DNA of 34,097 nucleotides from an uncultured Candidatus Saccharibacteria bacterium (GCA_964651585.1 CAZYWI010000001.1:1-34097), one strand, 5' to 3'; positions 1 to 34,097 are shown, counted from the stretch's first letter. Numbers and translations are program-made. The notes: generated from the letters alone by a model not told the origin.

Positions 1-832
1 ACACAAATGGTATTTTTTCACCTTGAACATTAAACTCATAAATTAAAAGCAAACATTCCCCAGCACCACTTGTATATCCGGTTTTACCTCCTCAAATCTC
101 ATCAATTTGCCCCAATAACTCATTCGTGGTGACAATAAGATGAGTTTCTCCAGTAAGCGATTTAAAACTGGCGGATTTTGTCCTAGTGATTTCTCCTATA
201 ATGGGATAGTTATAATAAATATAACGCGATAATTTAAATAAGTCAAGCGCGGTAGTAAAATTTCCTTTATCATCAAAGCAAAGAGGATCAAAAAAAACAG
301 TATCTTCCATTCCTATTTCTTTTATTTTTTCGTTCATTAAAGCAGCAAATTTTTCTCTGCCATAATAAGAGGCTAAAATCATAGAAGAATCGTTGGCTGA
401 CATAATAAGCGTCATATTTAATAAATCTCTTACTTTGACTTTTTCGCCTTTTTCAAAATGAATTGTACCTCAATTTTTATTCAACATACTTTCGTCTATA
501 GTAATAACGCCGTCTAAGTCCATTTTATCTAAAACAACTAAGGCGGCGATTAATTTACCAATAGAAGCTGGAAAAGTATGTAAAGTGGCATTTTTGCTAT
601 AAATAATTTGATTAGTTTTTAAATTACCTATTAAAACAATAGGGGCTTCTATTTTTTCCGAGAACGTATATTTATTAACATTTTGATAAGATAAATCGAA
701 AAGGCTATGATTATCTTTTAATAAAACACCACCCTGATAATGAAAAAAAGATAAAAACAAAACTATTAAAATAACAGTAAGAAAAAATAATATCCACAAG
801 AATTTCTTTTTTATATATCTAACCTTTTCCAT
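1..832 (-). CDS. D-alanyl-D-alanine carboxypeptidase (peptidase S11, low-MW PBP); 3' end runs off the window
   Basis: Joins ORFs 470..832 and 92..415 plus 2..91 through in-frame TGA at 470 and 92. Has an N-terminal TM/signal segment, then SxxK (ASIGK), SxN (SAND) and KTG (GGKTGYT) motifs in canonical order. Confidence 0.85.
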
Positions 833-844
833 ACTGGTTATAAT

Positions 845-1426
845 TTAATAAATTTCTTTGTCACCTTCTTGATCAATGTTTTGGGTATTTTCTGATGCTT
901 GAAGTTGTGAGTTCTTCAATTTTTCATATTCTGGTAATTCAGAAATTTTTGTTAGACCTAAGAATTTCAATAAATTAAATGAAATTTCATATAAATAGGT
1001 ATTTCTGCGTTGAGGATGTGGATAGCGATCAATTAAGCCACGAATAAGCAGAGTTTTCAAGGGGTAAGAAGAATTTGCCCCCCTAATTTCTTCTATACCG
1101 CGATGAGAAATCGGGCCTCGGTAAGCAACAATAGACAAAACTTCTAAAGCAGTAGGTGTTAAATCGCCTTCTAAAACTAACTTGTTTAGCTTTTTAACAA
1201 AGTTACTTGCTTTTTCGTTAGTAACAAGCTGTACCATTCTTTTGCCACTGCTTTCTTTTTCTAAAATTGTTAGACCTCTGTCTTCTTCCTGATATTCATG
1301 AATTAATTCAGTAATTGCCTCCTGAACTTCTTCGTTATTTATTTCGCAAATTTTTGATAAATCTTCAAGAGACAATGGCTCTCCAGATGCAAATAATACC
1401 GCTTCAATTTTATATTTATTTTTCAT
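845..1426 (-). CDS. scpB: segregation and condensation protein B
   Basis: 193 aa intact ORF with the ScpB-type N-terminus (EAVLFASGEPLSLEDL) and tandem winged-helix layout. scpA lies two genes upstream. TAA stop. Confidence 0.85.
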   Translation of the reverse strand: MKNKYKIEAVLFASGEPLSLEDLSKICEINNEEVQEAITELIHEYQEEDRGLTILEKESSGKRMVQLVTNEKASNFVKKLNKLVLEGDLTPTALEVLSIVAYRGPISHRGIEEIRGANSSYPLKTLLIRGLIDRYPHPQRRNTYLYEISFNLLKFLGLTKISELPEYEKLKNSQLQASENTQNIDQEGDKEIY

Positions 1427-1435
1427 AATTTAAAA

Positions 1436-1924
1436 TTATTTATGCCATTCGTTATAAATGCCACTTTTAAAATAAGAATCTAACATTTTTAATTCCTCAT
1501 AAATGCCTTCAATCAAATCATAATTTTTACTCTCTTCAAAGCTAACCCAAGCAAAATCAGACATAGAATTTTGAAGATTAATTTCGCCGCTATCATAGTC
1601 AGCATATAAACTAACTATTATAGAAGGAATGCCATCAGATCTCACAAAAGCCATGCTCGTTAGATATCTCACGTTTTTAATATTAATACCCACCTCTTCT
1701 TGAATTTCTCTTTTTGCAACTCTTTCAAAAATATTATATCAATGATCCTTAGTATCTTTGGGCGTATTAATATAATCGCTCATCTCTAATTTACCACCCG
1801 GCACAGTCCATTTTCCAGGAAAATTTTTTTCTCAATCGGCCCTTTTTGTAATCAAATATTTATCTTCTTTCTTAACAATCACCGTTACTGATATATAGTG
1901 GGCTTTGTTTAGATTATATTCCAT
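1436..1924 (-). CDS. NUDIX hydrolase
   Basis: 162 aa after reading TGA at 1832 and 1739 as Trp. Starts MEYNLNKAHY at 1924. Nudix box core REIQEEVGI follows GKWTVPGGKLE, with an insertion inside the box. Confidence 0.7.
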
Positions 1925-1954
1925 AAGTTTGTATAATACTTATTAAAATAATAT

Positions 1955-2656
1955 TTAATTTACTTTAACATTAATGTCGGCAAAATTTTTATCTTGCTCC
2001 AGCCCTATGACTCCTTCTTTAGCTAAATGAAGTATTGCCAAGAAACTAACAATCATATCAATTTTATCGTTTTGATTAATCAACTCTTTAAATTTATAAG
2101 TTTTTCCTTTAGTTAATAATCGCAAAATTTGTTGAATTCTTTCTTTCAAGTTTACCAAAACTTTGATTTTTTTAGAAGGATGAGAAACGTTTTCTTTTTG
2201 ATAAATCTCCAAGATTTTAATAAAAGCATTAGCAATATCATCTGAGGATAAAGCTGAGGGCGGTGAAAATTGAATGATATTCTGCAAAAAAGGTTCGCGA
2301 CTATAAAAATAGTTTTGCTGGTTAAATAATTCTCTAAACAATAAAGATTTTTCTTTAAATAATTTATAAATAGCGAGCCTATCTTTAAGACTGAAAATCT
2401 CTTCATTCTCTTCCGGGGTCAATTGTAAAGTAGGTAGAATAGCTTTTGACTTAATAAGAAGCAAGGTTGAAGCAATCACTAAAAAATCCGCCAAATCATT
2501 AGGAGAAATTTCTTCTGATTCTAAATATCTTAAATAATCACTAGTAATTTCAGAGAGATTAATCTCGGTAATTTCTAAATGTTTTTCCTCAATTAATTTC
2601 AGAAGCAAATCTAAAGGTCCTGAAAATTTTTCTGTTGTAATAGTAAACTCAGTCAT
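1955..2656 (-). CDS. scpA: segregation and condensation protein A
   Basis: 233 aa intact ORF with the kleisin ScpA N-terminus (FSGPLDLLLKLIEEKHLEITEINLSEIT). Confidence 0.85.
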   Translation of the reverse strand: MTEFTITTEKFSGPLDLLLKLIEEKHLEITEINLSEITSDYLRYLESEEISPNDLADFLVIASTLLLIKSKAILPTLQLTPEENEEIFSLKDRLAIYKLFKEKSLLFRELFNQQNYFYSREPFLQNIIQFSPPSALSSDDIANAFIKILEIYQKENVSHPSKKIKVLVNLKERIQQILRLLTKGKTYKFKELINQNDKIDMIVSFLAILHLAKEGVIGLEQDKNFADINVKVN

Positions 2657-2682
2657 ATTAACTGGCTAAAAATATCAACTTT

Positions 2683-5286
2683 TTATAAATTTTTCCCACA
2701 ACAATGCTTGTATTTTTTGCCACTACCACAAGGACAAGGATCATTACGACCTACTTTTTTCTTTTCTCCAGAAATAATAATGCTTGGCTTAGCTTCTACT
2801 TTTACTTCTTTCTTTTCTACTTTCATTATAAAATCTAAAACATAATCATTAAATTTTGATAACAATTCTTCGTAAGATTCGTAAGAAAGCCGTTTATATT
2901 CTACTAAAGGATCTTTTTGAGCATAAGATTGCAAACTAGCTGAATCTCTAAGAGCTTCCATTTTCTCTAAATGAATCGTTCACAAAAAATCAATAGCTTG
3001 CAAAGAAATCTGTTTAATAATTTCCATAAATTGTATTTCACCAAATTTTACTTTCTTCTCGCGATAAACTGTTTCCATTTTTTGCTCTAAAATATTTTGT
3101 ATCCTCTCTTTTTTATTAAAATTTCTCTGAATTTCTGCTGTTTCATCTTCGGAAAAATGTAAAGTAAGATCAGCCAAATAAGTTTGGGCCTTTTCAAAAT
3201 CTAACCTATTAGTATAAACAAAATCGAGAAAGTTGTTAATTCTATCTTGATAAATTCCTCTCACATATTGATCTAAATCCCCCACTGAAGAAATTTTCAA
3301 AATATTATTTCTTTTACTATAAATTGCCCCGCGTTGCTTATTTAATACATCATCGTATTCTAAAATATGACGCCTTAAATCCAAATTAATACCTTCAATT
3401 TTTGTCTGGGCAGATTCAATGGCCCTCGTAATCATTGGATGCTCAATTGGCTCCTCTTCCGAAAATCCAAAACGTTTCATCAAAACACCAATAGTTTTTG
3501 GTGCAAAAATTTTAATTAATTCGTCTTCTAAAGAAACAAAAAATTGAGTTTCTCCTGGATCACCCTGTCTCCCCGCCCTTCCACGTAATTGATTATCAAT
3601 TCTTCTGGCTTCATGCCTTTCTGTACCTAAAACAAATAAGCCTCCTAGTTTTAATACCTCATCCCTTTCCTCAACATCTAAGGGATTACCACCTAAAATA
3701 ATATCAACGCCACGGCCAGCCATATTAGTGGCTACCGTGACAGCACCCTTTCTGCCGGCTTGAGCAATAATTTGACCTTCTTGCTCATGCTGTTTGGCAT
3801 TTAAAACATTGCAAGGAATGCCCTCGTGCTTTAACATTTGAGCAATTATTTCATTAATTTCTACTGAGCGAGTACCTAATAAAATTGGCTGACCTTTTTC
3901 GTGACGCTGTTTAATTTCTCGAACAATAGCCTTATATTTACCATTGAGAGTCTGATAAATTCTATCGGGTAAATCTTTTCTAATCATCGGTTTATTAGTA
4001 GGAATTACGACAGTCTCTAAACTATAAACCTTTAAAAATTCTTCTGCAGAAGTAGCGGCAGTTCCGGTCATTCCGGCCAAATATTTATACATACGAAAAT
4101 AATTTTGAATAGTAATAGTTGCTATAGTTCTACTTTCGGGATTCACATAAACTCCTTCTTTTGCTTCTAAAGCTTGATGAAGTCCACCAGAATAACGCCT
4201 ATCGGGTAAAACTCTGCCAGTAAATTCATCAACAATCAAAATTTTCCCATCTTTAACAATATAATCTTTATCTTTTTGAAAAAGTACATAAGCTTTCAAA
4301 GCTTCTTCTAAATGATGGACATAATTGATTCCTTCTAAATCAAAAATATTTTTTCCTAAAATTGCTTCTAATTTATTTAACCCAGGTTCAAGCAAAGAAA
4401 TAGTTTTGTTTTTGTAATCAACTAAAAAATCATCATTTTCTTTTAATTTCGGCACAATTAAAGCAAATTGCTTATATAAAACAGATGATTCTTCGTCAGG
4501 CTGTGAAATAATTAAAGGCGTACGAGCTTCATCAATTAAAATACTGTCAACCTCATCAATAATAGCGAAATAATGACCTCGCTGAACAACATCCTCGGCC
4601 CTCGTCACTAAATTATCACGTAAATAATCGAAACCGAATTCCGAACTCGTGCCGTAAGTAATATCAGCGTCGTAAGCTTCTTTTTTTGTACAAGGACGTA
4701 AATACTCTTCAAACACTTTAAAACTTGCTAAAAGATCTCTTTGCTCATCCAATTGTTGTTGATCAATGTTAACTTTTTCCTGGGTATAAGAGGGGTCATA
4801 AAGATAAGACGCGCTTTGAGTAATGCAGCCAACGCTTAATCCCAAACTATAATAAATCTGCCCCATCCAAACAGCATCACGGCGAGCCAAATAATCATTA
4901 ACCGTAATAATATGAACTCCTTTACCAACTAAAGCATTAAGATAAGCTGGCAAGGTGGCCGCCAAAGTTTTACCCTCGCCTGTTTTCATTTCGGTGATTT
5001 TATGTTGGTGAAGAGCTATTCCTCCTAAAAGCTGCACATCAAAATGACGCTGCCCTAAAGTACGCCTCGATGTCTCTCTCACTAATGCAAAAGCCTCGGG
5101 TAAAATATCATCCAATTTTGCTTGGTTTGCTCTAATAAGAGTTTTGAGATTCGTTGATCGAGCTAATAATTCTTCAGTTGATAAATCTAATAAAGTTGGC
5201 TCTAAATCATTAATGTTTTTTATTAAAGCTGTGTTTTTCTGAACAAATTTTTTATTGGTATCTAATAAATTACTAAAAATTGACAT
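2683..5286 (-). CDS. secA: preprotein translocase ATPase SecA
   Basis: 867 aa. ORFs 2980..5286 and 2683..2961 join through TGA at 2980, which aligns with the conserved D.LW.EHL Trp. DEAD-like motor motifs are present ([12 protein letters not shown]). The C-terminal Zn finger is [14 protein letters not shown]. Confidence 0.97.
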
Positions 5287-5325
5287 AAATAATCTTATAA
5301 CTTTTTAATTAAAATAACACTATTA

Positions 5326-5354
5326 AGTATAGCAAAATTAATATAAAAATACAA
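5326..5354 (-). promoter_or_regulatory. candidate sigma70-type promoter for the secA operon
   Basis: Minus strand reads TTGTAT, 17 nt, TGcTATACT (extended -10). The -10 ends about 40 nt upstream of the secA ATG. Confidence 0.45.
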
Positions 5355-5426
5355 CTGAATATTCTTAGCTTATCATCATTGCTAAAAATATAAATTTTAT
5401 GAAAGTATTAAGATAGAAATTTCAAA

Positions 5427-5459
5427 ATGTACGTACGCTTGTACATACAACATACGACT
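5427..5459. repeat. GTAC-rich palindromic motif, copy A (upstream of the secA promoter)
   Basis: Plus strand is ATGTACgtacgcttGTACAT (6-bp inverted arms) followed by ACAACATACGACT. Shares TGTACGT with copy C and TACGACT with copy B. Confidence 0.5.
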
Positions 5460-5547
5460 TCAAAAATAATTTTAATTATAAACTTCAGCCAATTTTAATC
5501 TTTCTTTTGATTCTCTTAGTAAGCTAAAACTACCGGGTTTAATAAAA

Positions 5548-5572
5548 CCTCCTCCTTAAAATAAGGAGGAGG
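5548..5572 (-). terminator. intrinsic terminator
   Basis: Perfect 11-bp GC-rich stem CCTCCTCCTTA/TAAGGAGGAGG with a 3-nt loop. On the minus strand it is followed directly by TTTTATT. It sits 49 nt downstream of the micro-ORF stop. Confidence 0.7.
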
Positions 5573-5620
5573 AGAAAGCTTTCCTAAAATAACTAATTAG
5601 GTAAGTAATTTTTGGAAAAA

Positions 5621-5674
5621 TTACTTCTTCTTATTCTTTGCTTTTTTTGCTTTTTTTGCTTTCTTAGTAGCCAT
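5621..5674 (-). CDS. hypothetical 17-aa polybasic micro-protein (MATKKAKKAKKAKNKKK)
   Basis: ATG..TAA micro-ORF built on about 3 tandem copies of a 9-nt unit (GCAAAAAAA on the coding strand). It lies between a TTGCAT-17-TATAAT promoter and a strong terminator. No homology evidence is available, and it could be non-coding. Confidence 0.3.
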   Translation of the reverse strand: MATKKAKKAKKAKNKKK

Positions 5675-5830
5675 AATTATAATTTAATTTTTTATTATCT
5701 CCATCGACCAACTTTATGGAGCGATTTCATTTTATAATGTTATTAAACATCTCTTTTTCGTTTGTTAAAACATTTTTATAAAACGTAAAAACTATTATTA
5801 ATAATTTTTGTAATTTTATATTTCATTATA

Positions 5831-5859
5831 ATTATAAACACTTTTTTGAAAAAATGCAA
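5831..5859 (-). promoter_or_regulatory. candidate sigma70-type promoter in the murB-secA spacer
   Basis: Minus strand reads TTGCAT, 17 nt, TATAAT (consensus -10, immediately repeated). It lies about 150 nt upstream of the micro-ORF. Confidence 0.4.
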
Positions 5860-6028
5860 GTATTTTTTCCACTTTTTTATTTTTACATCCAAATATATTC
5901 AAATAAATTATTTTTAAAATTGTCTAAAAAATAATTTTTTAAAATAAATCTAAAGTTTACAAAAATTATCACACCAAACTATCAAATTGACTTAATAATT
6001 TTTCAGAAAACACGAATGATTAATGAAT

Positions 6029-7009
6029 TTATTGTTTAAAACCCACTAATTCTATCTCTTCTTCAAGCTTCACGCCAAATCTTTTAAAGACAACTTGCTT
6101 AATATGCTGAATTAGCTTGTAAATATCGGCACTTTTGGCATTATTGCTATTGACAATAAAATTAGCATGAAGATTAGAAACCTGAGCGCCCCCTATTTGA
6201 TAACCCTTAAGACCACTCTGTTCGATTAAATATCCAGCGGGCACTTGATAAGTTTTCCCTTTTTTAATTACAACTAAAGATGTCTGATTTTGAAATTTTT
6301 TAGGAAATCGATTCAGGGGTATGTTTTTAAAAACACAACCTGCACTAGGTAATGAGTAGGGTTGAGATTTGTGACGCTTCATTAAAATTTCTTGTATTTT
6401 ATTTTTAATTTCTTGATTAGTAATTTTTGCTGGCTGATCAATAAGTTGAACTTCCCAAATAATATAAGGCTGATGTTTAAAAATGCTATCGCGATAGTGA
6501 AACGAACATTTATTTTTTGATAAAGTAACAGATTTCGTTTTACTATTAAACTTGCTAAGATGAGAATATTTAATTGCTGTAACTTTCAAAATGCCATTAC
6601 TAATTTCTTTATTACTCACACCCGCATTACCACGAACAGCTCCACCAATACTGCCGGGAATACCTACTAAATCTATAAGATTAACTAATTTATAATCAAA
6701 CATATAATTTAAGGCAGTCATTAAAGTTACACCCGCACCAAAAGTACTGATATATTTATTCTGCTTTTTAAGTATCTCCTGTTTATTATTTTGAATTTTT
6801 AGCACTAAACCATCAAAACCGTCATCACTTATTAAAAGATTACTACCTCCACCTAAAATAAAAACGTTGAGCTTGTTTTGATTGGCTCAAGCTAAAGATT
6901 TTATTAATTGGTCTTCATTTTCTATGGTGGCAAAATATTTCGCCTCTCCCCCAGTTCTATAAGTAGTATATTTAGCTAAAAGAACATGCTTTTGAATAAA
7001 AATATCCAT
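6029..7009 (-). CDS. murB: UDP-N-acetylenolpyruvoylglucosamine reductase
   Basis: 326 aa. ORF 6029..6805 extends upstream through TGA at 6887 to ATG at 7009. The N-terminus is MDIFIQKHVLLAKYTTYRTGGEAKYF..ILGGGSNLL (FAD-binding domain). The C-terminus carries MurB SAGCVFKN and GGAQVS motifs. Confidence 0.9.
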
Positions 7010-7013
7010 ATGA

Positions 7014-7415
7014 TTATTTTGACGAGTTTAATTTATCTAAAAAAGATTGAAGAATTAGAGAAGCAGCAACATCATCAACTCTTTTTGTTTTGTTATTTCA
7101 GTTATAAGCTTCTTTAGTTGATAAAATTTCATTCTCCTCATAAACATTAACTCCAGTTATTTTATTTTTAACAAAATTAAAAAAAGATTTGGTAATTTTT
7201 GTTTGGTCAGTATCAGTAAAATTAAAACTTAAAGGTATACCTATAACGATATCGGTGATGTTCTCACCTTTAATGATCTCAAGCAAAGATTTCAAAATAA
7301 AAGCTTTATTTTTATTATCAATAATTTTATAAGGAAATGCTACTTTTCTATCTTCGTCACTTATAGATAGGCCTATTCTTTTCTCGCCATAATCAATTCC
7401 TAACACTTTACCCAT
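7014..7415 (-). CDS. ruvX: YqgF/RuvX-family putative pre-16S rRNA nuclease (Holliday junction resolvase-like)
   Basis: 133 aa. ORF 7098..7415 continues through TGA at 7098 to TAA at 7014. The N-terminus is GIDYGEKRIGLSISD, and the C-terminal VDDVAASLILQSFL is typical of YqgF. Confidence 0.85.
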
Positions 7416-7453
7416 TTTAAAACTTTATTTTGATTTTTTATAAGAGTGGTTTC

Positions 7454-8215
7454 TTAGAGAGTTAAAATAAGCGATTTTTGAGGCATCACTGCTATTGAAT
7501 GTTCAAAATGGCAAGCTGGCTCTCCATTTAAAGTAGAAAAAGAGCCGTCAGGATTCTCAATAATTTCTCCGCTCTCATAAGTGAGCATTGGTTCTAAAGC
7601 CAAAACATTACCTTTATTTAAAACAATGCCTTTATGAGGCCTGCCAAAGTTAAAAACTTCCGGACTTTCATGAAGCTCATATCCCACACCATGACCGACT
7701 AAATTTTTAATTACCACTAAACCATTTTTCTCAGCACAACTCTGAATGGCATAGCCAACATCACCAAGAGTATGGCCAGCAATAGCCGCCTTAATTCCCT
7801 CTAATAAAGCGCGCTTTGTTACAGTTAAAAGCTTTTTCTTTTTGTCGGAAATTTTGCCTATACCAATACTAATGGCACTGTCCACAAATAAATTTTTATA
7901 AATCAACCCCAGATCCAGTGATACTAAATCTCCTACAGCTAAAATTAAATCTTTGGTTGGTACTCCGTGAACGATTACTTCATTTTTGGAAACGCATAAA
8001 GAATGAGTGAAAGGAATATCCATAAAATTAGCTTGATAATTTAAAAATGCTGGTTTTGCACCAGCCTGAGTAATTAAATCATAAGCCATTTTATCTAACA
8101 TATCGCCAGATACCCCCGGCTTAGCAGCTTGAGCAAGCTGCTTTAGAATACGGGATAAAAGCTTTCCTCCTTCCCTTAATGTTTTAATTTCTTGCTGAGT
8201 TTTGGTTGTAATCAT
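7454..8215 (-). CDS. map: methionine aminopeptidase type I
   Basis: 253 aa from the internal ATG at 8215 (MITTKTQQEIKTLREGGKLL). Metal-ligand context is present (D..D, HGVGYELHE, LEPM, FEH). The longer track ORF starting at 8341 would overlap adk. Confidence 0.9.
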   Translation of the reverse strand: MITTKTQQEIKTLREGGKLLSRILKQLAQAAKPGVSGDMLDKMAYDLITQAGAKPAFLNYQANFMDIPFTHSLCVSKNEVIVHGVPTKDLILAVGDLVSLDLGLIYKNLFVDSAISIGIGKISDKKKKLLTVTKRALLEGIKAAIAGHTLGDVGYAIQSCAEKNGLVVIKNLVGHGVGYELHESPEVFNFGRPHKGIVLNKGNVLALEPMLTYESGEIIENPDGSFSTLNGEPACHFEHSIAVMPQKSLILTL

Positions 8216-8270
8216 AATAAAATAATTTATAGCTCCTCTAGTGTTTCCAACCCCAATAATCAATTCGAAA

Positions 8271-8924
8271 TTATTTGGAAAGAATATTGTCGATAATTTG
8301 AGTAATGTTTTGATGAATTTCCTCAATTGAACCAATGGCATTTACAGAATAGAGAATTTGTTTCTCCTTTAAAAAGTTGATAGCTGGAATAATGTCCCGA
8401 TAAAAAACTTCTAAGCGAGTTTTAATTACTTCCGGATTGTCGTCATTTCTTTGAATTAAATCACCGCCACAATTAGGACATTTTTCAAGACCCGGATTAA
8501 GAGCTAAAGAAAGGGATTCTCCACACTGATCGCAATAGCGTCTCGTTGTTGACCTCTTATAAACCTCTTCGTCGGGCATATCTAAATAAATCGCAATAAG
8601 AGGTTTCGCTTCTAATCAATTGAAAAATTCAACTAAAGACTCTGCCTCTATAAGATAGCGTGGGTTGCCTTCAAAAATCACACCCTGTCCTTCTGGCAAT
8701 TCTATAATTCTTTTAACCCAAACAAAAGTAGTAAGAGCCACTGGCACTAAATATCCTTTTTGAATGGTCTCATTAATTTTAGCCGCAATATCATTTTTGC
8801 CATTTTTAGCTCATTCACGTAAAAGATGACCTGTTTGTACTATCTCTAAATTATACTTTTGCGCCAATAACTTTGCCTGAGTATCTTTGCCACAATTTGG
8901 CTTTCCCGTTATAAAAATAATCAT
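8271..8924 (-). CDS. adk: adenylate kinase with Zn-binding lid
   Basis: 217 aa. ORF 8271..8579 extends upstream through TGA at 8616 and 8811 to ATG at 8924. The P-loop is MIIFITGKPNCGKDT, and the lid is CDQCG..CPNCGG. Confidence 0.9.
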
Positions 8925-9061
8925 AAAAATAAATTACTTTATAATAGTTCGTTAAAATGCCCACTTTTGCTACTATCTTTAATTCGCCTGCCATAAAGAT
9001 GATTAAAATTCTAAAACAATAGGTAAATTAATTAGGTCAAGAAAAATAATATTTTCTCTAA

Positions 9062-10330
9062 TTAATAATCATACTTCCTCATTGTAATCTGGGCTTCGAT
9101 TTCTCTTTTAATTTCAATAGCCACGGCGACTAAAATGAGAATCGAAGTACCACCTAAATTAAAGGTATTTACTTTGGTCACCCCCTCTAAAATCATCGGT
9201 AAAATTGCTATCAAAGCAAGAAATAAAGCGCCAAACAAGGTGATCCGACTGGAAATTTGAGATAAATATTCCGCTGTTTTTTCTCCTGGTCTATATCCCG
9301 GAATAAAACCACCCATTTTCTGCAAATTTTCAGAAATTTCTTTCGGCTCAAAAGTAATACTGGTATAAAAGAAAGTGAAGAAAAATACCAATAAAAAGTA
9401 GACGGCAGAATAAACGATCTGGTTTTGAAATAGGTTAACAAGAAAAGTACCGATTTGAAGTGCGGCAGCATATTTGGTTGCAACTAAAAGCTGCCCAATA
9501 AAACTCGGGAGCATTAAAACAGAAATAGCAAAAATAATTGGAATAACACCTGCTTGGTTCACTTTTAAAGGTAATTGAGTGGTGACTCCTCCATACATTT
9601 TGTTACCCCTGACATGTTTTGCATAAGACACTGGGATTCTTCTTTCCCCTTCGGTCACAAAAACAACAGCTACAATCATAAGCAACGCTAATACCAAGAA
9701 AGAAATAATATTGAAAATTTGGTTAGATTTGTAAGTAAAAAAAGTTGTTACAAAACTTCTAGGTAAATCAGCAACAATACCTGCAAAAATTATTAAAGAA
9801 ATGCCATTGCCCATTTTTTGTTCTGTAATTAAATCACCTATTCAAACGAGAATCATAGAAACAGCTGTTAGTACAACTATATCTCGCAACAAAACAAAAT
9901 TAGAAGAAACTTGGATAATTTTTTGAAATTCAAACAAGCGAATCATAGCAAATCCCTGAAGTGCTGCCAAAGGTATTGTTAATCATCTTGAGTAATTTCC
10001 GAATTTTCTTCTTCCTTCAGCGCCTTCTTCGTGAAACATTTCTTTAAGGCTTGGAATCACCATTGCTAAAAGCTGAAGAATAATTGAGCTCGTGATATAT
10101 GGACCAATACCTAAAAGTGCTATAGATAAATTTTTAAAAGCACCGCCAGTAAAAATATTAAATAAACCAAGAATCTGATTAGCCTCTAAAAAACTTTTAA
10201 GTTTATCTGGGCTTACGTCGGATAAAGGAATTATAGTAAGTAAACGAAAAACTAAAAGTAATCCAAAAATATTAAGAATCTTTTTCCTTAAATCTTTTGT
10301 TTTAAAAATTGTAATAAGATTTTTAAACAT
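9062..10330 (-). CDS. secY: preprotein translocase subunit SecY
   Basis: 422 aa. ORFs 9983..10330 and 9062..9814 join through TGA at 9983 and 9842. The second aligns with the Trp of the conserved M.W.GE.ITE segment (MILV-W-IGDLITEQKMGNGISLIIFAGI). Confidence 0.95.
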
Positions 10331-10339
10331 AAGCTAATT

Positions 10340-10768
10340 TTATTCTATCTTTCCGCCAGCTTGCTCTATTTCGGAAGCTGCACCTTTAGAAACCTTGATA
10401 GCGGACGAAATGACATATTTTTTATTAATTGGCTTTTTAGAAGCAATAATTTTAAATTGCGTTTTTAATGAAGGGATAAAATGATACTGCTTTAAAATTT
10501 CTGGAGTAATTTTGGTACTCTCAGGAATAATTTTGCTTAGTTCATCTAAACGAATCTCGATCTTATGACGAGAAACAGAGGTATTTTTAGCACCTCGCCA
10601 TTTTGGTAGCCTTAAAAACGCCTCTTTTATTTGAGGCTTGATTTTTCTACCAGCCCGGGCCTTTTGACCTTTTTGGCCTTTTCCCGAATATGTTCCTTTT
10701 TTGCCTCCTCTACCTATATTTTTTGCCTTTTTATTTTTATGAAGAGGCTTCAGATTGTGTATTTGCAT
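10340..10768 (-). CDS. rplO: 50S ribosomal protein L15
   Basis: 142 aa, MQIHNLKP..GRGGKKGTYSGKGQKGQKARAG. Its start overlaps the rpsE 3' end by 32 nt. Confidence 0.93.
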   Translation of the reverse strand: MQIHNLKPLHKNKKAKNIGRGGKKGTYSGKGQKGQKARAGRKIKPQIKEAFLRLPKWRGAKNTSVSRHKIEIRLDELSKIIPESTKITPEILKQYHFIPSLKTQFKIIASKKPINKKYVISSAIKVSKGAASEIEQAGGKIE

Positions 10769-11354
10769 TTTCTATTTTTTGATTTATTTTATTAGAGTCT
10801 TTAAAATTTTTATATTTATTACTTAATAATATGAAAGCTTTATTTAAAGATTTCGCATTATTTATTACATTATGTGAGTTACCTAAAACCTTAGTAGTAA
10901 TATTTTTAATACCTGTTAAATTAAGAATTTCTCTAATAACACCGCCCGCGATAATGCCTTTGCCTTCTTTAGCTGGTTTCAAAATAATTTCGCTGGCCGA
11001 ATATTTAGCGGCTATTTCAAAGGGAATGGTGTCATTTTTAACAAGAGGAATGGTAATTAAATGCTTAAGAGCATCCTTTTTTGCCTTATCAATAGATTGC
11101 GATACATCTGCGCCTTTCGCCATACCTAATCCTATTTTATCGCGATGATTGCCAACTGCCATAGTGGTTCTGAACGATAATTTTTTACCACCGCCAGTAA
11201 CTCTTGCTACCCTTTTAATTTCTAAAATCACTTCGTCAAAGTCAGATTCAACAGAATGTTTTAGATCCCGACTTTTATCTAAACCTTTAGGTCTTTTAAA
11301 ATTTTTTTCCTCTTTATCATTAGAATGATTGTTTGTTGTATTTCTTGCTTTCAT
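10737..11354 (-). CDS. rpsE: 30S ribosomal protein S5 (N- and C-terminally extended)
   Basis: 205 aa with S5 core VARVTGGGKKLSFRTTMAVGN..GKGIIAGG. It is followed directly by rplO with no L30 gene between them. Confidence 0.93.
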   Translation of the reverse strand: MKARNTTNNHSNDKEEKNFKRPKGLDKSRDLKHSVESDFDEVILEIKRVARVTGGGKKLSFRTTMAVGNHRDKIGLGMAKGADVSQSIDKAKKDALKHLITIPLVKNDTIPFEIAAKYSASEIILKPAKEGKGIIAGGVIREILNLTGIKNITTKVLGNSHNVINNAKSLNKAFILLSNKYKNFKDSNKINQKIENANTQSEASS

Positions 11355-19999: not shown

Positions 20000-21199
20000 T
20001 TAGGCAATAATTTTGGTTACCACACCAGCACCGACCGTTTTTCCTCCTTCTCGAATAGCGAATTTTTGCTTTTCTTCAATAGCAACTGGCACTATTAATT
20101 TAACTTTAAAAGTAGCATTATCTCCTGGCATTACCATTTCTACTCCTTCTTTCAAGGCAATTTCACCTGTAACATCAGCAGCTCGAATGAAAAATTGTGG
20201 CTTATAACCACTAAAGAATGGGGTATGGCGTCCTCCTTCATCTTTAGAAAGAACATAAACTTCGGCTTCAAATTCTGTGTGGGGAGTAATGCTACCAGGT
20301 TTAGCTACAACTTGGCCTCTTCGGACTTCTTCTTTTTTGGTACCTCTTAAAAGAATACCAATATTGTCGCCCGCAACACCTTCTTCTAGGGTTTTGTTAA
20401 ACATTTCTACTCCAGTTGCAATAGTTTTAATGGTGGGAGTATAACCAACAATTTCTACTTCATCGTTCACTTTAATAGTACCTCTCTCAACACGTCCGGT
20501 CACTACAGTCCCCCTACCTTCAATGGTGAAAATATCTTCGATTGGCATCAAAAATGGCTTATCTTTATCACGAGTAGGCAAAGGAATATAAGTATCTAAA
20601 GCCTCTAATAATTGGAAAATTGGTTTAACTGCTTCATCGTCAACACTTTGCGCTTCTAAAGCTTTGAGAGCCGAACCTCTAATGACAGGTACTTCATTGC
20701 CAGGAAAACCATATTTAGTTAAAAGTTCTCTTACTTCAGCTTCAACTAAATCAACCAATTCTGGATCAGAAACAGCATCAACTTTATTCAAAAACACAAC
20801 AATTGCCGGCACTCCTACTTGACGAGCAAGTAAAACATGTTCTCTTGTTTGGGGCATTGGACCATCAACAGCAGAAACAACTAAAATAGCACCATCCATT
20901 TGAGAAGATCCGGTAATCATATTTTTAATGTAGTCAACATGTCCCGGACAATCAATATGAGCATAGTGACGATTTTCTGTTTCATATTCCGAGTGGTGAA
21001 CATTAATGGTAATACCACGGGCTTTTTCTTCGGGCGCTTTATCAATGTCATTCACAGTATATGTTTTATCAATTAAACCCTTTAAATGTAAAACATGTAA
21101 AATTGCTGCTGTCAATGTTGTTTTACCATGATCAATGTGCCCAATAGTACCCACGTTTAAGTGAGGTTTATTTCTCACAAATTTTGCTTTCTCAGCCAT
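20000..21199 (-). CDS. tuf: elongation factor Tu
   Basis: 399 aa intact ORF with [14 protein letters not shown] and NKVD GTPase motifs. Confidence 0.98.
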
Positions 21200-21612: not shown

Positions 21613-23712
21613 TTAAGCATCTTTTTTTCCAATAATCGTTTCAGCAATATTTTGAGGTACTTCTTGATAATGATCGAATTCCATAGTAAACGTACCTCTA
21701 CCCTCAGTCATAGAACGCAAGTTTGTCACATAGCCAAACATTTCGGCTAAAGGTACAAAGGCATCTACTACTTTCATATTATATCTGTCTTGCATCCTTT
21801 CGATACGGCCTCGGCGAGCATTTAAATCTCCAATAACATCACCTAAAAATTTTTCTGGTACTACTACTTCCACTTTCATAATCGGCTCTAAAAGTACGGG
21901 CTTAGCCTTTTTAGCTGCGTCTTGAAAAGCCATAGAGCCAGCAATTTTAAAGGCGAAATCAGAAGAATCAACCTCGTGATAAGAGCCATCATATAATGTA
22001 ACCCTAACATCTGACATTGGGTAACCAGCTACAATCCCTTTTTCCATCGCCTCTTTAACACCTTTTTCTACTGCGGGAATAAATTCTTGAGGAATAATAC
22101 CACCTTTGATTTGATTAACAAACTCAAATCCTTTACCTCTCTCCAAGGGCTCGATTTTTAACCAGACATGACCATATTGACCATGACCGCCAGATTGACG
22201 AATATACTTACCCTCAGCTTCTGCAACTTCCTTAATAGTTTCTTTGTAAGCAACTTGGGGTTTACCAACATCAACATTAATATTAAATTCTCGGCGTAAT
22301 CTATCAACTATAATATCCAAATGCAATTCTCCCATACCAGAAATAATTGTATCCATAGTTTCTTCGTCGGTTTTCACTTTAAAAGTCGGATCTTCCTCGG
22401 CTAATTTTTTGAGTGACAAACTAATTTTTTCTTGATCAGCCTTTGTTTTAGGCTCCAATTTTAAAGAAATAACTGGCTCAGGAAAAGAAATTGATTCCAA
22501 AATAATAGGATTTTGCGGATCACATAAAGTATCTCCAGTTAAGGTGTATTTTAAACCTACTGTAGCCACGATGTCTCCAGCACTAACATCATCAATTTCT
22601 TCGCGCTTATTAGAAAACATTCTAATTAAACGAGAGATTCTTTCAGTCTGACCTTTGCTACTATTATATATGTAGCTTCCTTTTGTTAATTTTCCCGAAT
22701 AAACTCTAAAATAAGTTAAAGAACCAACATAAGGATCGGTTGCCAATTTAAAAACCAAGGCGCTAAAGGGTTCGTTCTCATCAGACTTTCTAATAGTAGT
22801 TTCTCCAGTACGAGGATCAATGCCCTCAATTGGGGGTAAATCTAAGGGGGAGGGCAAATATTCAACTACACCATCCAAAACACACTGTACTCCTTTATTT
22901 TTAAAAGCTGAACCGCAAAAAACTGGTACTAATTTATAATTAATAACAGATTTTCTTAGTGAAGCCATAATTTCTTCTTCGCTAATCGGCTCTTCATTTA
23001 AATATTTATGAAGTAAATTATCATCTTGATCAGCAACTTTTTCCACTAAGATGTTGTGATATTCTCAAGCTTTATTTTTTAGATCTTCTGGAATTTCGGT
23101 ATTAATAACTTGCTCGCCATGCTCTCCATGAAATTCAACTTTTTTCATTCGAATTAAATCAACCACACCCTCAAATTTATCTTCTTTACCAATGGGAATA
23201 TTTAAAGCCACAGCGTTAGGTGTAAGTTTTTCTTTAATAGATTGAAAGCTTGCTTCAAAATCAGCACCTAAACGATCCATTTTATTAATGAAACAAATTC
23301 TTGGCACCGAATATTTATCAGCCTGATGTCAAACTGTTTCTGACTGTGGTTCAACACCAGCAACGCCATCAAAAACAACTACAGCACCATCTAAAACCCT
23401 CAAAGATCTTTGCACCTCGGCAGTAAAATCAATATGGCCAGGAGTATCGATGATATTAATTTTGTGTTTAAAGTTGGCGTCGTTATTTCTATAAGTAGGG
23501 GTTCAAAAGCAAGTTGTTGAAGCTGCCGTAATCGTAATACCTCTTTCTCTCTCTTGCGCCATTCAATCCATAATTGCTGCTCCCTCGTGAACTTCTCCAA
23601 TTTTATGAGAAAGACCCGTATAAAACAAAATACGCTCTGTGGTCGTTGTTTTACCAGCATCAATGTGAGCAATAATACCAATATTTCTTAGTTTTTCTAA
23701 AGGATACTCCAT
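21613..23712 (-). CDS. fusA: elongation factor G
   Basis: 699 aa. It runs from ATG at 23712 ([23 protein letters not shown]) through TGA at 23563 (MD-W-M), 23503 (CF-W-TP), 23329 (ETV-W-HQA) and 23065. The first three are conserved EF-G Trp positions. Confidence 0.97.
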
Positions 23713-29610: not shown

Positions 29611-30687
29611 TTATTTTATATCCACTGCCTTTCGAACGGGCTTCGTAATTATTCCTGAATTAAAAACCCTGATATCATCAATACCATATTTTATCATGGT
29701 AAATCTTTCGAGCCCTAAGCCAAAAGCAAACCCTTCGTAATTATAATCGGCTCAATTCGCATAACGATAAAGATTTTTGTGCACCATACCAGCACCTAAT
29801 ACTTCCATTCAGCCGCTACCCCCACAAAGACGACAATTTTTATTTCTGCCTTGACATTTAAAACAAGAAATATCCATCTGCAAACCGGGACTTACAAAAG
29901 GAAAATAACTTGGCAAGAATCTAATTTTAATCTCTTTGCCAAAAATAGTTTTTGCTAATGCTTCCATAATATATTTAAAATTTGCCAAGCTAATTTTTTT
30001 ATCTACCATTAAACCTTCTATTTGCCGAAACTGAAAATCATGACGCGCGTCAGTAGCTTCGTAACGATAACAAACACCGGGCACAATAATTTTGATGGGC
30101 GGATTATTTTTTTCCATATATCTCATTTGCACTGGACTAGTATGAGTACGCAACAATAAATTCGTGGCCTTATATGGATAATCAGCTGAATAATTATTTA
30201 ATTTAAGCCCGTCTTCTAATCAAAAAGTGTCTCACATATCCCTCGCTGGATGATTTTTGGGTATGTTTAAGGCATCAAAATTATAATATTCACTTTCCAC
30301 TTCAGGTCCTTCAATAACCTCAAATCCTAATTTAGAAAAAAATTTTAATATTTCTCTCTCCATTAAGGTCTCAAGATTAAGAGAGCCTAGGTTTTGCTTT
30401 TTACCCGGTTGGGTATAATCAAACAATAAATTAGATTTTTCTTCTGTGTAATTGGCGCGCAATTCTTGATAAGTAGCCTGTAATTTTTGTTTCAGCTGAT
30501 TCAGGGCTGGACCCAACTTTTTTTTCTCCTCAGTGGCTAAATCTTTAAGCTCTTCAAAAAAAGAGACCAATTTTCCTCTCCTTCCTAAATATTTGATGCG
30601 CCACTCTTCTAGAGTGTTGCTATCTTTAATATTTTTGGCTTCTTCAAGAATTTTCGCTTCTCAATTTTTAATATCATCTAAATTCAT
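29611..30687 (-). CDS. pheS: phenylalanine--tRNA ligase alpha subunit
   Basis: 358 aa. In-frame TGA at 30661, 30232 (HPARDM-W-DTF), 30220, 29809 ([15 protein letters not shown], conserved G-W) and 29752. Class II motifs are present. Confidence 0.95.
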
Positions 30688-31031: not shown

Positions 31032-31808
31032 CTATGTTCTATTATGAATAACCAAATCCTCATATTTTATCCCCGATTTTTTAATAATCTCTTGACATTC
31101 TTGAATATATTTAGCCATCAATTTTTTATCCTGCAAAATCTTCAAACTGTCTGGATATTCTTTTTTCATCATAGTCACAAATTCTGAACCAGCGCCCCTC
31201 AAATTCATAAATTCAAATCAGTAATAATAAGTATAATTTTTGGTGATATTAATAACTTTTTCTAAGTTAATTAATTTTGGGATAATGGGACTAATAAAAG
31301 CATAAGTCTTAATCCCACTTTGATATAATATTTTTAAGGCTTCAATTCGTAATTTATTCGGGGGAGTAAATGGCTCCATTAAATTTTTTGTTTTTCCGTC
31401 AAAATTATTAATTGTTAATCCAACTTCGATATTGGGAAACTGTTTAAACAAATCTATGTCTCGTAAAACTAAATTTGATTTAGTTAAAATAGACAATCGA
31501 ATATTTCTATCTAAATTTTCTAATATCTTTCTTGTTAATTTTAACTTTTGTTCTATGGGCTGATAGGGATCAGACATAGAGCTCATAAAAACCTCGCCTT
31601 TTACTTTTTTATGTTTTGCTAACTCCGGAGCATTCATTTTGGCTTCAACCCACATTCCCCATTTTCCGTATTGTTTTCAACGACAAATAAATTTAGCATA
31701 ACAATAAGTACAGGCATGTTGACAACCAACATACTGATTTAAAGTATAATCACAACCTAATTTTGTTTTTGTATATATTTCTTTGGCTTGAGTTTTAACA
31801 AGCTCCAT
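31032..31808 (-). CDS. radical SAM protein, SplB/DNA-photolyase-like (COG1533-type)
   Basis: 258 aa from ATG at 31808. The CxxxCxxC cluster sits in the family-typical context YVGCQHACTYCYA. In-frame TGA at 31677 and 31218. TAG stop at 31032. Confidence 0.7.
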
Positions 31809-31850: not shown

Positions 31851-34097
31851 TTATTCTAGCTCTTTAATGGTTTTTAAAATAGAATCAGGATTTAAAGAGA
31901 TACTTTCTATACCTTCATCAATTAAAAATTTAGCAAACTCGGGATAATCGCTTGGCGCTTGGCCGCAAATACCAATATATTTGTTTTTAGCTTTGCATTT
32001 TTGAATGATTTCTTTAATAAGTCTTTTCACTGCTTCATTTCTTTCATCAGCAATTGAATGCAATTCGGGACTGTCACGATCAATACCTAAAACTAATTGA
32101 GTTAGGTCGTTGGAACCGATTGACATTCCGTCAAAAATATCCAAAAATTCATCTGCTAAAATAATATTAGAAGGAATTTCACACATTACATACACCTTTA
32201 AAGACGCGGATAAACGCGGATCAAAATACTGATTGACACTGATTCTGGGCGCAGCTTGATGTTTTAGGCCACAAACCTCCATAACGCGAATCACTTTTTT
32301 TCCTTCTTCTGGGGTGCGGCAAAAAGGTATCATGGGAACAACATTAAATAACCCAAATTCATCTCTAACTTTTTTCAGAGCGGCACATTCTAATTTAAAA
32401 GCTGTAATAAATTTCTGATCATAATAACGAGAAGCGCCACGTCAGCCTAACATAGGGTTTTCCTCTTGGGGCTCATAAAGATCACCACCAACTAAGTTAC
32501 GATATTCGTTGGTTTTAAAATCTGAGAAACGAACTATGACTTCTTTTGGATAAAAAGCGGCTCCAATTTTAGCAATGCCCCGGGCTAAATTATCAACAAA
32601 ATATTGCTTTTTATCTCGATAGCCGCTAGTTCACTGATCGATTTGTTTCTTAATTCCTGGAGGTAAATTCCTATAATGAATAAGTGCTAAAGGATGAATT
32701 TTAATATCGTTAGCAATAATAAATTCTTCTCGAGCTAAACCCACGCCATCATTAGGTAGCAGTCGTAAATTAAATGCCTGGTTTGGTTCCCCTAAATTCA
32801 TCATAATTTTCACTTTAGGTTTGGGTAATTTAGAAACATCGGTTTTTTTAATGCTAAAAGGAATGAATCCTCTATAAATTTTTCCTTCTTCTCCTTCAGC
32901 GCAAGAGACTGTAATTTTATCACCCATCTTGAGAATTTTAGTAGCGTCTTTAACTCCGACAATTGTCGGCACTCCCAGTTCTCTACCTACAATAGCTGCA
33001 TGGCAAGTTCGGCTACCACTTTCAGTAATAATAGCATTAGCTAATTTCATTGCCGGTACTCAATTAGGATCAGTTGCATAAGTTACTAAAATTTCTCCCT
33101 TTTGAAAATCTGATAAATGTTTAGCATCTTTGATAATTTTGACTTTCCCAGTAGCAATTTTATTACCAACACTTAGACCTGTCAAAACTGGCTTTTGCTT
33201 CTTTTTATTGTGCAGCTCATAACTTTCTAAAATATCGTATTGTTTAAGACTTTGTACTGTCTCGGGCCGAGCTTGCACAATATAAATTTGTTTATCTAGC
33301 CCATCTTTAGCAAACTCAATATCCATTTCTTTTTGATAGTGAGATTCTACTATCATAGAATAATGCCCCAAAGTCAAGATTTCTTCATCGGTGAGGGCAA
33401 ATTTATCTCTGAGATTTTTCGGAACTTTCACATATTGGGTACTCTTGCTTCCTTTACTATAAATTAACTTAATATCTTTTGTACCCAATCTTTTTTCTAA
33501 TATTGGTTTATATCCTTGAGCTAAAGTTTTTTCATAAACATAATACTGGTCAGCATTAACTCTACCCTTCACAATAGTTTCACCCAAACCATAACTAGCA
33601 TTAATCAGGATAACATCACCAAAATTAGTTTCGGTATCGCAAGAAAAAATGACTCCCGAAACCCCCTTATCACTTCGAATCATTTTTTGCACTCCAACTG
33701 ATAAACCAACTTTAAAATGATCAAAATTTTTTTCTACTCTATAGACTATGGCTCGATCATTAAAAAGCGATATGAAGCATTGCTTAACAGCTCTTAATAA
33801 ATTGTTCTTTCCTCTAATATTTAAGAAAGATTCATGAATGCCAGCAAAAGAAGCTTCGGGTAAATCTTCGGCTGTAGCTGAAGAACGTACTGCTACTGAT
33901 AAATTTTTAGTTTTATACTCCTCGCATAAACTTTCATAATACGCAACAATTTCTTTTTCTAAAAATTTAGGTAAAGGAGTCTTTCAAATGAGGCTTCTAA
34001 CTTGTTTACCTCGCTCTTGTAATTCTTTAAGATTTTTAATATCCAGACCCTCGAGAATGTTTTTGATTTTTTCTTTCAATCCCGTACTCTCTAAATA
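31851..34097 (-). CDS. ppsA: phosphoenolpyruvate synthase (pyruvate, water dikinase); 5' end off-window
   Basis: At least 748 aa. The ATP-grasp region is [30 protein letters not shown]. The phospho-His swivel domain is [17 protein letters not shown]. The PEP-utilizer TIM barrel is [18 protein letters not shown]. In-frame TGA at 33984, 33060 (DPN-W, conserved), 32631 and 32442 (MLG-W-RGASRY). Confidence 0.9.

Follow-up and report, generated by a model that had tools for sequence, protein, structure and literature searches.

Reassignment of UGA to tryptophan and apparent turnover of the UGA-decoding tRNA in a walled Patescibacteria genome of the family JAKLIH01

That the stop codon UGA is reassigned to tryptophan (genetic code table 4) has been reported for the GTDB family JAKLIH01 (order UBA6257, class Minisyncoccia). 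PMC13092985 (NAR, 20 April 2026) described it as a 'new independent case' of UGA-to-Trp reassignment; the evidence in that paper came from four genomes and consisted of a Codetta signal, a tRNA(UCA) detected in two genomes, and the absence of release factor 2 (RF2) and of UGA stops. The gTranslate preprint (10.64898/2026.05.24.727570, 28 May 2026) reported UGA-to-Trp in 12 JAKLIH01 genomes and in 10 genomes of the genus GCA-2747955, a second recoded group of Minisyncoccia, and named Patescibacteriota as the first phylum in which tables 4, 11 and 25 all occur. Only UGA = Gly is still listed in a review of this phylum from May 2026. Here we describe a 34,097-nt stretch of DNA (GCA_964651585.1, CAZYWI010000001.1:1-34097; the window), located on contig 1 (C1) of a fragmented metagenome-assembled genome (MAG), together with the genome to which it belongs (514 kb, 32% GC, 74 contigs, 94.8% complete). 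A preliminary description of the window had proposed that UGA is read as Trp in an uncultivated lineage that keeps peptidoglycan genes. This main claim is correct, although UGA-to-Trp in JAKLIH01 has been known since spring 2026 and is no longer new. The window genome shares with the reported cases the family, UGA at Trp columns, a tRNA(UCA), the lack of RF2 and TAA/TAG stops. It differs in being a separate genus-level lineage and in having a tRNA(UCA) that appears to derive from a recently duplicated tRNA-Trp(CCA).

The Mycoplasmatales and Entomoplasmatales, as well as the reduced insect symbionts Hodgkinia, Nasuia, Zinderia and Stammera, also have a UCA tRNA derived from tRNA-Trp, loss of RF2, low GC content and a small genome. 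Unlike these organisms, JAKLIH01 belongs to another phylum, keeps peptidoglycan synthesis, SEDS/PBP2, MreB and MurJ, and represents an independent reassignment. The Gracilibacteria/Absconditabacteria (JAEDAM01), which use table 25, share with JAKLIH01 the phylum, UGA as a sense codon and the retention of peptidoglycan genes; however, UGA in JAKLIH01 specifies Trp rather than Gly, the decoder derives from tRNA-Trp rather than tRNA-Gly, and the class and the event are separate. In the UGA-to-Trp case of the Eggerthellaceae (Actinomycetota; 10.64898/2025.12.01.691617) both tRNA-Trp(CCA) and tRNA-Trp(UCA) are kept, RF2 is lost and a duplication model has been proposed. It is a further instance of table 4 in a group that is presumably not wall-less, although phylum and habitat differ and in JAKLIH01 the canonical gene seems to have become the suppressor while the paralogue kept CCA. 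UGA-reading tRNA-Trp(CCA) molecules with a 4-bp anticodon stem, described in PMC13092985 along with eukaryotic cases cited there, have position 27:43 unpaired, as do the JAKLIH01 decoders; in JAKLIH01 the unpaired position is found in the cognate UCA tRNAs (8/8), whereas the CCA tRNAs mostly have 5 bp (6/7).

Taken together, the results described below make it very probable that the window derives from a walled Patescibacteria genome of family JAKLIH01 in which UGA was reassigned from stop to Trp and the UGA decoder was turned over. In the proposed mechanism, UGA is read by a tRNA(UCA) with Trp identity, and TAA and TAG would be the only stops. The tRNA would be charged by tryptophanyl-tRNA synthetase (TrpRS), and wobble at U34 would allow it to read UGG as well. 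The canonical tRNA-Trp gene of the JAKLIH01 ancestor would have become a tRNA(UCA) gene, with a shorter paralogue remaining CCA; in the window lineage this CCA paralogue would have been duplicated again and gained C34U, and the canonical gene would have been lost. Reassignment of UGA to Trp thus needs no wall-less or endosymbiotic lifestyle. It also follows, as is already in the literature, that table 11 mis-annotates JAKLIH01 genomes, splitting genes and understating completeness and metabolism. The present analysis adds a further genus-level member of the family, a wall pathway that appears to be retained under selection, a Ser-to-Cys change in MurB, and a natural experiment in which a suppressor tRNA was apparently made twice and its anticodon stem unpinned each time. 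Neither PMC13092985 nor 10.64898/2026.05.24.727570, in their accessible parts, takes up the wall genes, the existence of two types of tRNA(UCA) or the 4-bp stems. We regard the replacement of the tRNA(UCA), the 4-bp UCA stems and the MurB Cys as modest new side observations.

When the window was translated with table 11 most of its genes were split, whereas table 4 gave 37 contiguous minus-strand open reading frames (ORFs), each closed by TAA or TAG or running to the end of the contig. About 55 in-frame TGA codons were spread over 24 of the 37 genes. Among the ORFs of at least 150 aa in the whole genome, 338 of 344 ended in TAA (275) or TAG (63), and the remaining 6 had non-stop codons at contig ends. 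Genome-wide there were 955 TGA and 453 TGG codons, such that UGA accounts for about two thirds of the Trp codons; Trp content was 1.09% counting TGA and 0.35% without it. The window EF-G was examined in an alignment of 81 EF-G sequences. Its UGA codons at aa 50, 70 and 128 fell in columns where 74-75 of the 77 standard-code homologues have Trp, and UGA at these near-invariant columns was common to the window and its three nearest relatives. The UGA of PheS aligned with a conserved Trp of solved PheS structures. No UGA was found on a Gly column in either the EF-G or the PheS alignment.

We called tRNA genes with ARAGORN. The sole tRNA(UCA) of the genome (C41:2718-2789) was 92% identical to its own tRNA-Trp(CCA) and 56-61% identical to its three tRNA-Gly genes. 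It carries Trp identity elements, i.e. A1-U72, G73 and a Trp anticodon stem, and its discriminator base G73 contrasts with U73 in all three tRNA-Gly genes. The tRNA-Trp-like UCA tRNA, the Trp columns and the Trp content lead us to conclude that UGA = Trp is well supported and that UGA = Gly is excluded.

The best EF-G relatives (65-79% identity) were all Patescibacteria/Paceibacteria MAGs (Parcubacteria, Minisyncoccia), and phyla other than Patescibacteria appeared among the 80 best loci from GTDB species genomes only at 64% identity or less. Four to five in-frame TGA and zero TGG were present in fusA of the three nearest relatives (79, 74 and 73%), and the next two (72 and 71%) contained no TGA and 4-5 TGG. 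The EF-G tree grouped the ten recoded sequences in a single clade (SH-aLRT 99) that was sister (100) to standard-code Paceibacteria within a Patescibacteria clade (99). One sequence in this tree (L073) was dismissed as a long-branch artefact. Whole-genome GTDB kinship placed the window genome in the same family as MAG RA.bin82 (G004), which is the type MAG of JAKLIH01, and the window genome is therefore a member of JAKLIH01. The organism belongs to the Patescibacteria (candidate phyla radiation, CPR), class Minisyncoccia/Paceibacteria, order UBA6257, and constitutes a genus of its own within the family. EF-G relatives, EF-G tree and GTDB kinship thus agree with the uncultivated CPR-type lineage that the preliminary description had suspected.

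The family contains 12 species representatives in 5 genera, the window genome included, and in-frame TGA was found in 12/12. Full-length fusA was available from nine relatives, each with 2-5 in-frame TGA. No TGA was present in a 290-aa fusA fragment of G002, and fusA was not recovered from G010; in-frame TGA was present in the Mur ligase, MraY and S11 genes of both genomes. In G002 (68% complete, 4% contamination) TGA made up about 48% of Trp codons, as opposed to 68-90% elsewhere in the family. Possibly G002 branched off early and is less recoded, or this value may partly reflect contamination (loci L095, L110, L114 and L131).

Exactly one class-I release factor (PCRF) gene, itself containing TGA, was found in 10 of the 11 relatives, whereas two or three were found in 27 of the 29 other families of the order that were compared. 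No class-I release factor gene (prfA or prfB) was detected in the window genome's own assembly, using either a hidden Markov model or tblastn with RF1 of G006 and of an outgroup. Because TAA and TAG serve as stops, we take its RF1 gene to lie in an assembly gap and not to have been lost. Neither its assembly nor the family relatives yielded an RF2 gene; therefore, no termination is expected at UGA. As the reassignment is confined to one family and the sister lineages are TGG-only with two release factors, we judge it to be independent of the UGA = Gly lineage. The suggestion that this might be an independent reassignment is thus borne out.

Two tRNA-Trp-like types occur in the family, type B (74-78 nt, UCA) and type A (72 nt, CCA). 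The sample was small (8 UCA and 7 CCA genes), and since the genomes are related the counts given below do not represent independent events. Type B was present in G002, G004, G005, G006, G007 and G008, which represent four genera. In G004-G008 it follows tRNA-Thr(UGU)-Tyr-Thr(GGU)-rpmG, the first tRNA-Thr of G004 being outside the fetched stretch, and in G002 it adjoins tRNA-Gln(CUG). As the outgroup loci around fusA were without tRNA-Trp, 400 kb was taken from two outgroup genomes. The standard-code outgroup G031 contains a 74-nt tRNA-Trp(CCA) at the same Thr-Tyr-Thr-rpmG locus (L149:15110-15645), with which type B shares 82-88% and type A 78-81% identity. Furthermore, Escherichia coli tRNA-Trp gave a full-length 81% match to type B and no match to type A. 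On the basis of the outgroup locus, the identity values and the E. coli match, type B appears to be the canonical tRNA-Trp gene that became the UGA decoder of the family, and a family-specific paralogue seems to have kept CCA. Downstream, the canonical tRNA(UCA) is followed by genes that vary among relatives (L141, G007:C6 1472-3013; L139, G004:C20 1097-1420) and are not secE-nusG. The G007 stretch downstream of the gene holds a serine recombinase, and the canonical tRNA(UCA) may be an integration site.

Type B was not found in the window genome, where the only blastn matches of the family's canonical tRNA(UCA) were short ones to the D-arm of other tRNAs. The canonical site after rpmG (C53:1-470) was assembled and empty, and an ORF continues across the 16-nt overlap by which C53 joins C32. 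A 20-nt remnant of the canonical tRNA(UCA) after rpmG on C53 was considered and found too weak to claim. The tRNA-Trp(CCA) gene of this genome is at C32:4837-4908. Its tRNA(UCA) is a copy of type A with the lineage-specific T-stem of the CCA gene; it has unrelated flanks and is located between smc and ftsE. Six differences separate the two genes, among them C34U and G27U. The simplest reading of these results is that type A was duplicated a second time and acquired C34U, after which the canonical gene was lost; gene conversion plus relocation is less likely. We dropped a simple deletion model, as the HAD gene beside this tRNA-Trp(CCA) is not beside the relatives' copies.

A 27:43 mismatch (AxA, AxC, GxA or UxU) was present in 8/8 family UCA genes, resulting in a 4-bp anticodon stem. 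In contrast, position 27:43 is G-U or A-U in 6/7 CCA genes and in the outgroup gene, the remaining CCA gene (G008) having UxU. These counts imply no more than two or three independent events of unpinning. According to PMC13092985, unpinned anticodon stems affect UGA reading, as studied for CCA tRNAs, and the mismatch in the UCA genes fits this reported effect; the same paper scores JAKLIH01 as having 5-bp CCA tRNAs. The pattern suggests that there is selection for an unpinned stem in cognate UGA decoders as well. On balance, we lean towards the interpretation that the decoder was replaced within the recoded family and that both independently derived UCA tRNAs lost the 27:43 pair.

The S11 D-Ala-D-Ala carboxypeptidase of the window (Pfam E 1e-35) contains the SxxK (SIGK90), SxN (SAN145) and KTG250 motifs and an N-terminal hydrophobic membrane anchor, as had been read from the window alone. 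All three motifs are invariant in 12/12 family genomes. The 3' end of the gene is cut by the contig end, leaving 277 aa, as compared to 291-327 aa in relatives. MurB scored 215 bits against NCBIfam TIGR00179 (cut-off 144.5) and matched MurB homologues in the PDB (E 1e-37), and is full length (321-326 aa) in 12/12 family genomes. One aberrant MurB sequence, that of G002 (L110; 26% identical, no TGA), is a possible contaminant or a different MurB type and was left out of the arguments. When the window protein was aligned to 1HSK and 3TX1, the Arg (YRDS, aa 172-175) and Glu of the Staphylococcus aureus R188/S238/E308 triad were found to be kept, and Ser238 was replaced by Cys225. The residue is Cys in G003 and G006 as in the window, and the remaining nine family genomes have Ser. 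An insert of about 26 aa (aa 232-257), absent from solved MurB structures, follows the catalytic loop family-wide. By its fold and family score, the protein is predicted to work like a MurB. The preliminary description had called MurB apparently intact, which holds for its length and score but not for the catalytic Ser.

Besides MurB, the genome encodes MurC, MurD, MurE, MurG, MurJ, FtsW, RodA, PBP2, MltG, UppS and MreB in addition to S11, and MurC, MurD, MurE, RodA and PBP2 scored over NCBIfam equivalog cut-offs. Each wall gene family searched was present in 12/12 family genomes. In close pairs with unsaturated dS, dN/dS was 0.06-0.08 for MurB and 0.10-0.11 for S11; pairs including the window gene were unreliable (dS >1.2), hence the use of closer pairs. 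As the genes are full length with conserved motifs and dN/dS of 0.06-0.11, they appear to be under purifying selection rather than decaying, consistent with a walled CPR cell. In relatives, mraY lies about 0.4 kb after S11; here S11 (window 1-832) runs off C1, and the 3' part of mraY is at C8:1-395. C1 and C8 are therefore probably adjacent, with about 0.6 kb missing between them. C8 also encodes, at 6609-10271 and adjoining murJ, a 1220-aa secreted protein with three PG_binding_1, three CARDB and one PKD domain.

We considered several other explanations of these data. Since tables 4 and 25 open identical ORFs, the intact genes alone are equally compatible with UGA = Gly, the code of the JAEDAM01 lineage in the same phylum and the only UGA reassignment that the May 2026 review gives for it. 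The identity elements of the tRNA(UCA), the placement of UGA on Trp columns and never on a Gly column, and a Trp content that is normal only when UGA is counted as Trp leave this explanation with hardly any probability. A partial reassignment, in which UGA would be Trp inside genes yet still terminate some of them, would accommodate both the failure to assemble any release factor from this genome and the finding that TGA occupies only about half of the Trp codons in G002. The almost exclusive use of TAA and TAG at the ends of the longer ORFs and the lack of RF2 in the relatives make it very unlikely, as do the four JAKLIH01 genomes of PMC13092985, in which gene ends were reported to be without UGA stops.

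The low GC content, small genome and table 4 would also fit an origin in the Mycoplasmatota or in a reduced insect endosymbiont, i.e. in one of the classical table 4 lineages. However, the EF-G tree nests the window within Patescibacteria, Mycoplasmatota contributed none of the 80 best EF-G loci, and the top 52 matches carry CPR-type or unclassified MAG labels, with the exception of a Pacearchaeota (L026) and a Gammaproteobacteria (L029) entry. In addition, L30 is absent across the order and the peptidoglycan pathway is near complete, so that such an origin has a negligible chance of being correct. Finally, the peptidoglycan genes could be decaying relics of an effectively wall-less cell, as the altered MurB catalytic residue, the missing MurF and the fragmentary MurA and MraY might indicate. 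We consider this extremely improbable: the MurA and MraY fragments sit at contig ends and the genes are full length in relatives, the Cys is common to three genomes of two genera and hence maintained, the low dN/dS of MurB and S11 and the invariant S11 motifs argue against decay, and five other wall proteins score above equivalog cut-offs.

Several points weigh against the interpretation of a walled, fully recoded JAKLIH01 genome with a replaced decoder. Insertion of Trp at UGA rests on sequence evidence. The absence of RF2 from this genome is judged from a 95%-complete, 74-contig MAG and from the pattern in relatives, and the placement is based on a single-gene EF-G tree (quick search) and whole-genome GTDB kinship. 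The apparent loss of the canonical tRNA(UCA) could reflect a gap in the assembly, even though its conserved site was assembled and empty. With Cys in place of the catalytic Ser, MurB activity is a prediction. MurA and MraY of this genome are fragments at contig ends, and MurF was not found in its assembly (three Mur ligases as compared to four in most relatives; Ddl was not searched).

The ribosomal protein and elongation factor genes also contain lineage-typical features. The S5 gene directly overlaps the L15 gene in the window, leaving no space for an L30 gene. No L30 (PF00327) was detected in the genome, and 29 of 31 relatives of the order gave no PF00327 match, the two matches in the others being marginal. 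A CPR-wide loss of uL30 is described in PMC9297842. The loss of L30 is an order-wide lineage trait; like the small genome, it is normal for CPR bacteria and unlinked to the code change. EF-Tu, which has no Trp codons, was compared with 53 EF-Tu sequences. Its motifs GSSQMDG (aa 97) and FIRAADVTG (aa 337) correspond to GSAQMDG and FIRTADVTG in the nearest relatives and to GAAQMDG and Y[IF]RTTDVTG in the broad consensus, such that one genome-specific substitution is present in each motif. These oddities appear to be mild drift typical of the lineage. The missing L30 and the divergent EF-Tu of the preliminary description are therefore both confirmed, the latter as mostly lineage-typical.

Window genes were identified with Pfam and NCBIfam profiles (Table 1). 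GyrB and PheT are also among them (Pfam). Pfam matches were obtained for all of the other proteins named earlier from the window, i.e. SecA with its zinc finger, ScpA, ScpB, PpsA and a radical-SAM enzyme.

Table 1. Genes and codons of the window under table 4 (positions counted from the first nucleotide of the window; numbering of UGA codons refers to the protein)
Feature	Position	Strand	Evidence or remark
S11 D-Ala-D-Ala carboxypeptidase (DacA-like)	2-832	-	Pfam PF00768 Peptidase_S11, E 1e-35; two in-frame UGA (aa 121, 247)
ScpB	845-1426	-	Pfam PF04079
NUDIX hydrolase	1436-1924	-	Pfam PF00293
ScpA	1955-2656	-	Pfam PF02616
SecA, C-terminal SEC-C zinc-finger motif	2683-5286	-	Pfam SecA_DEAD, SecA_PP_bind, SecA_SW, SEC-C; one in-frame UGA (aa 769)
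MurB, UDP-N-acetylenolpyruvoylglucosamine reductase, 326 aa	6029-7009	-	Pfam FAD_binding_4 and MurB_C; one in-frame UGA (aa 41, 6887-6889)
MurB insert, about 26 aa	~6239-6316	-	aa 232-257
MurB Cys225 codon TGT	6335-6337	-	position of catalytic Ser (S. aureus Ser238); alignment to 1HSK, 3TX1
RuvX	7014-7415	-	Pfam
Map	7454-8341	-	Pfam
Adk	8271-8924	-	Pfam
SecY	9062-10330	-	Pfam
L15	10340-10768	-	Pfam
S5	10737-11354	-	Pfam
EF-Tu	20000-21199	-	Pfam
EF-G	21613-23712	-	UGA at aa 50 (23563-23565), aa 70 (23503-23505), aa 128 (23329-23331)
PheS	29611-30687	-	UGA at aa 293 (29809-29811)
Radical-SAM enzyme	31032-31808	-	Pfam
PpsA / PEP synthase, 5' end beyond contig	31851-34097	-	Pfam

GC content was 30-35% along the full length of the window. 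The window is compact, its largest non-coding spacer being the 742 nt between secA and murB (5287-6028). Elsewhere in the genome, a tRNA-Ile(UAU) was called at C10:4503-4575, as it was in the outgroup G031 (L144:17993-18068), and ARAGORN found only two CAU tRNAs in the window genome. AUA may thus be read without lysidine/TilS.

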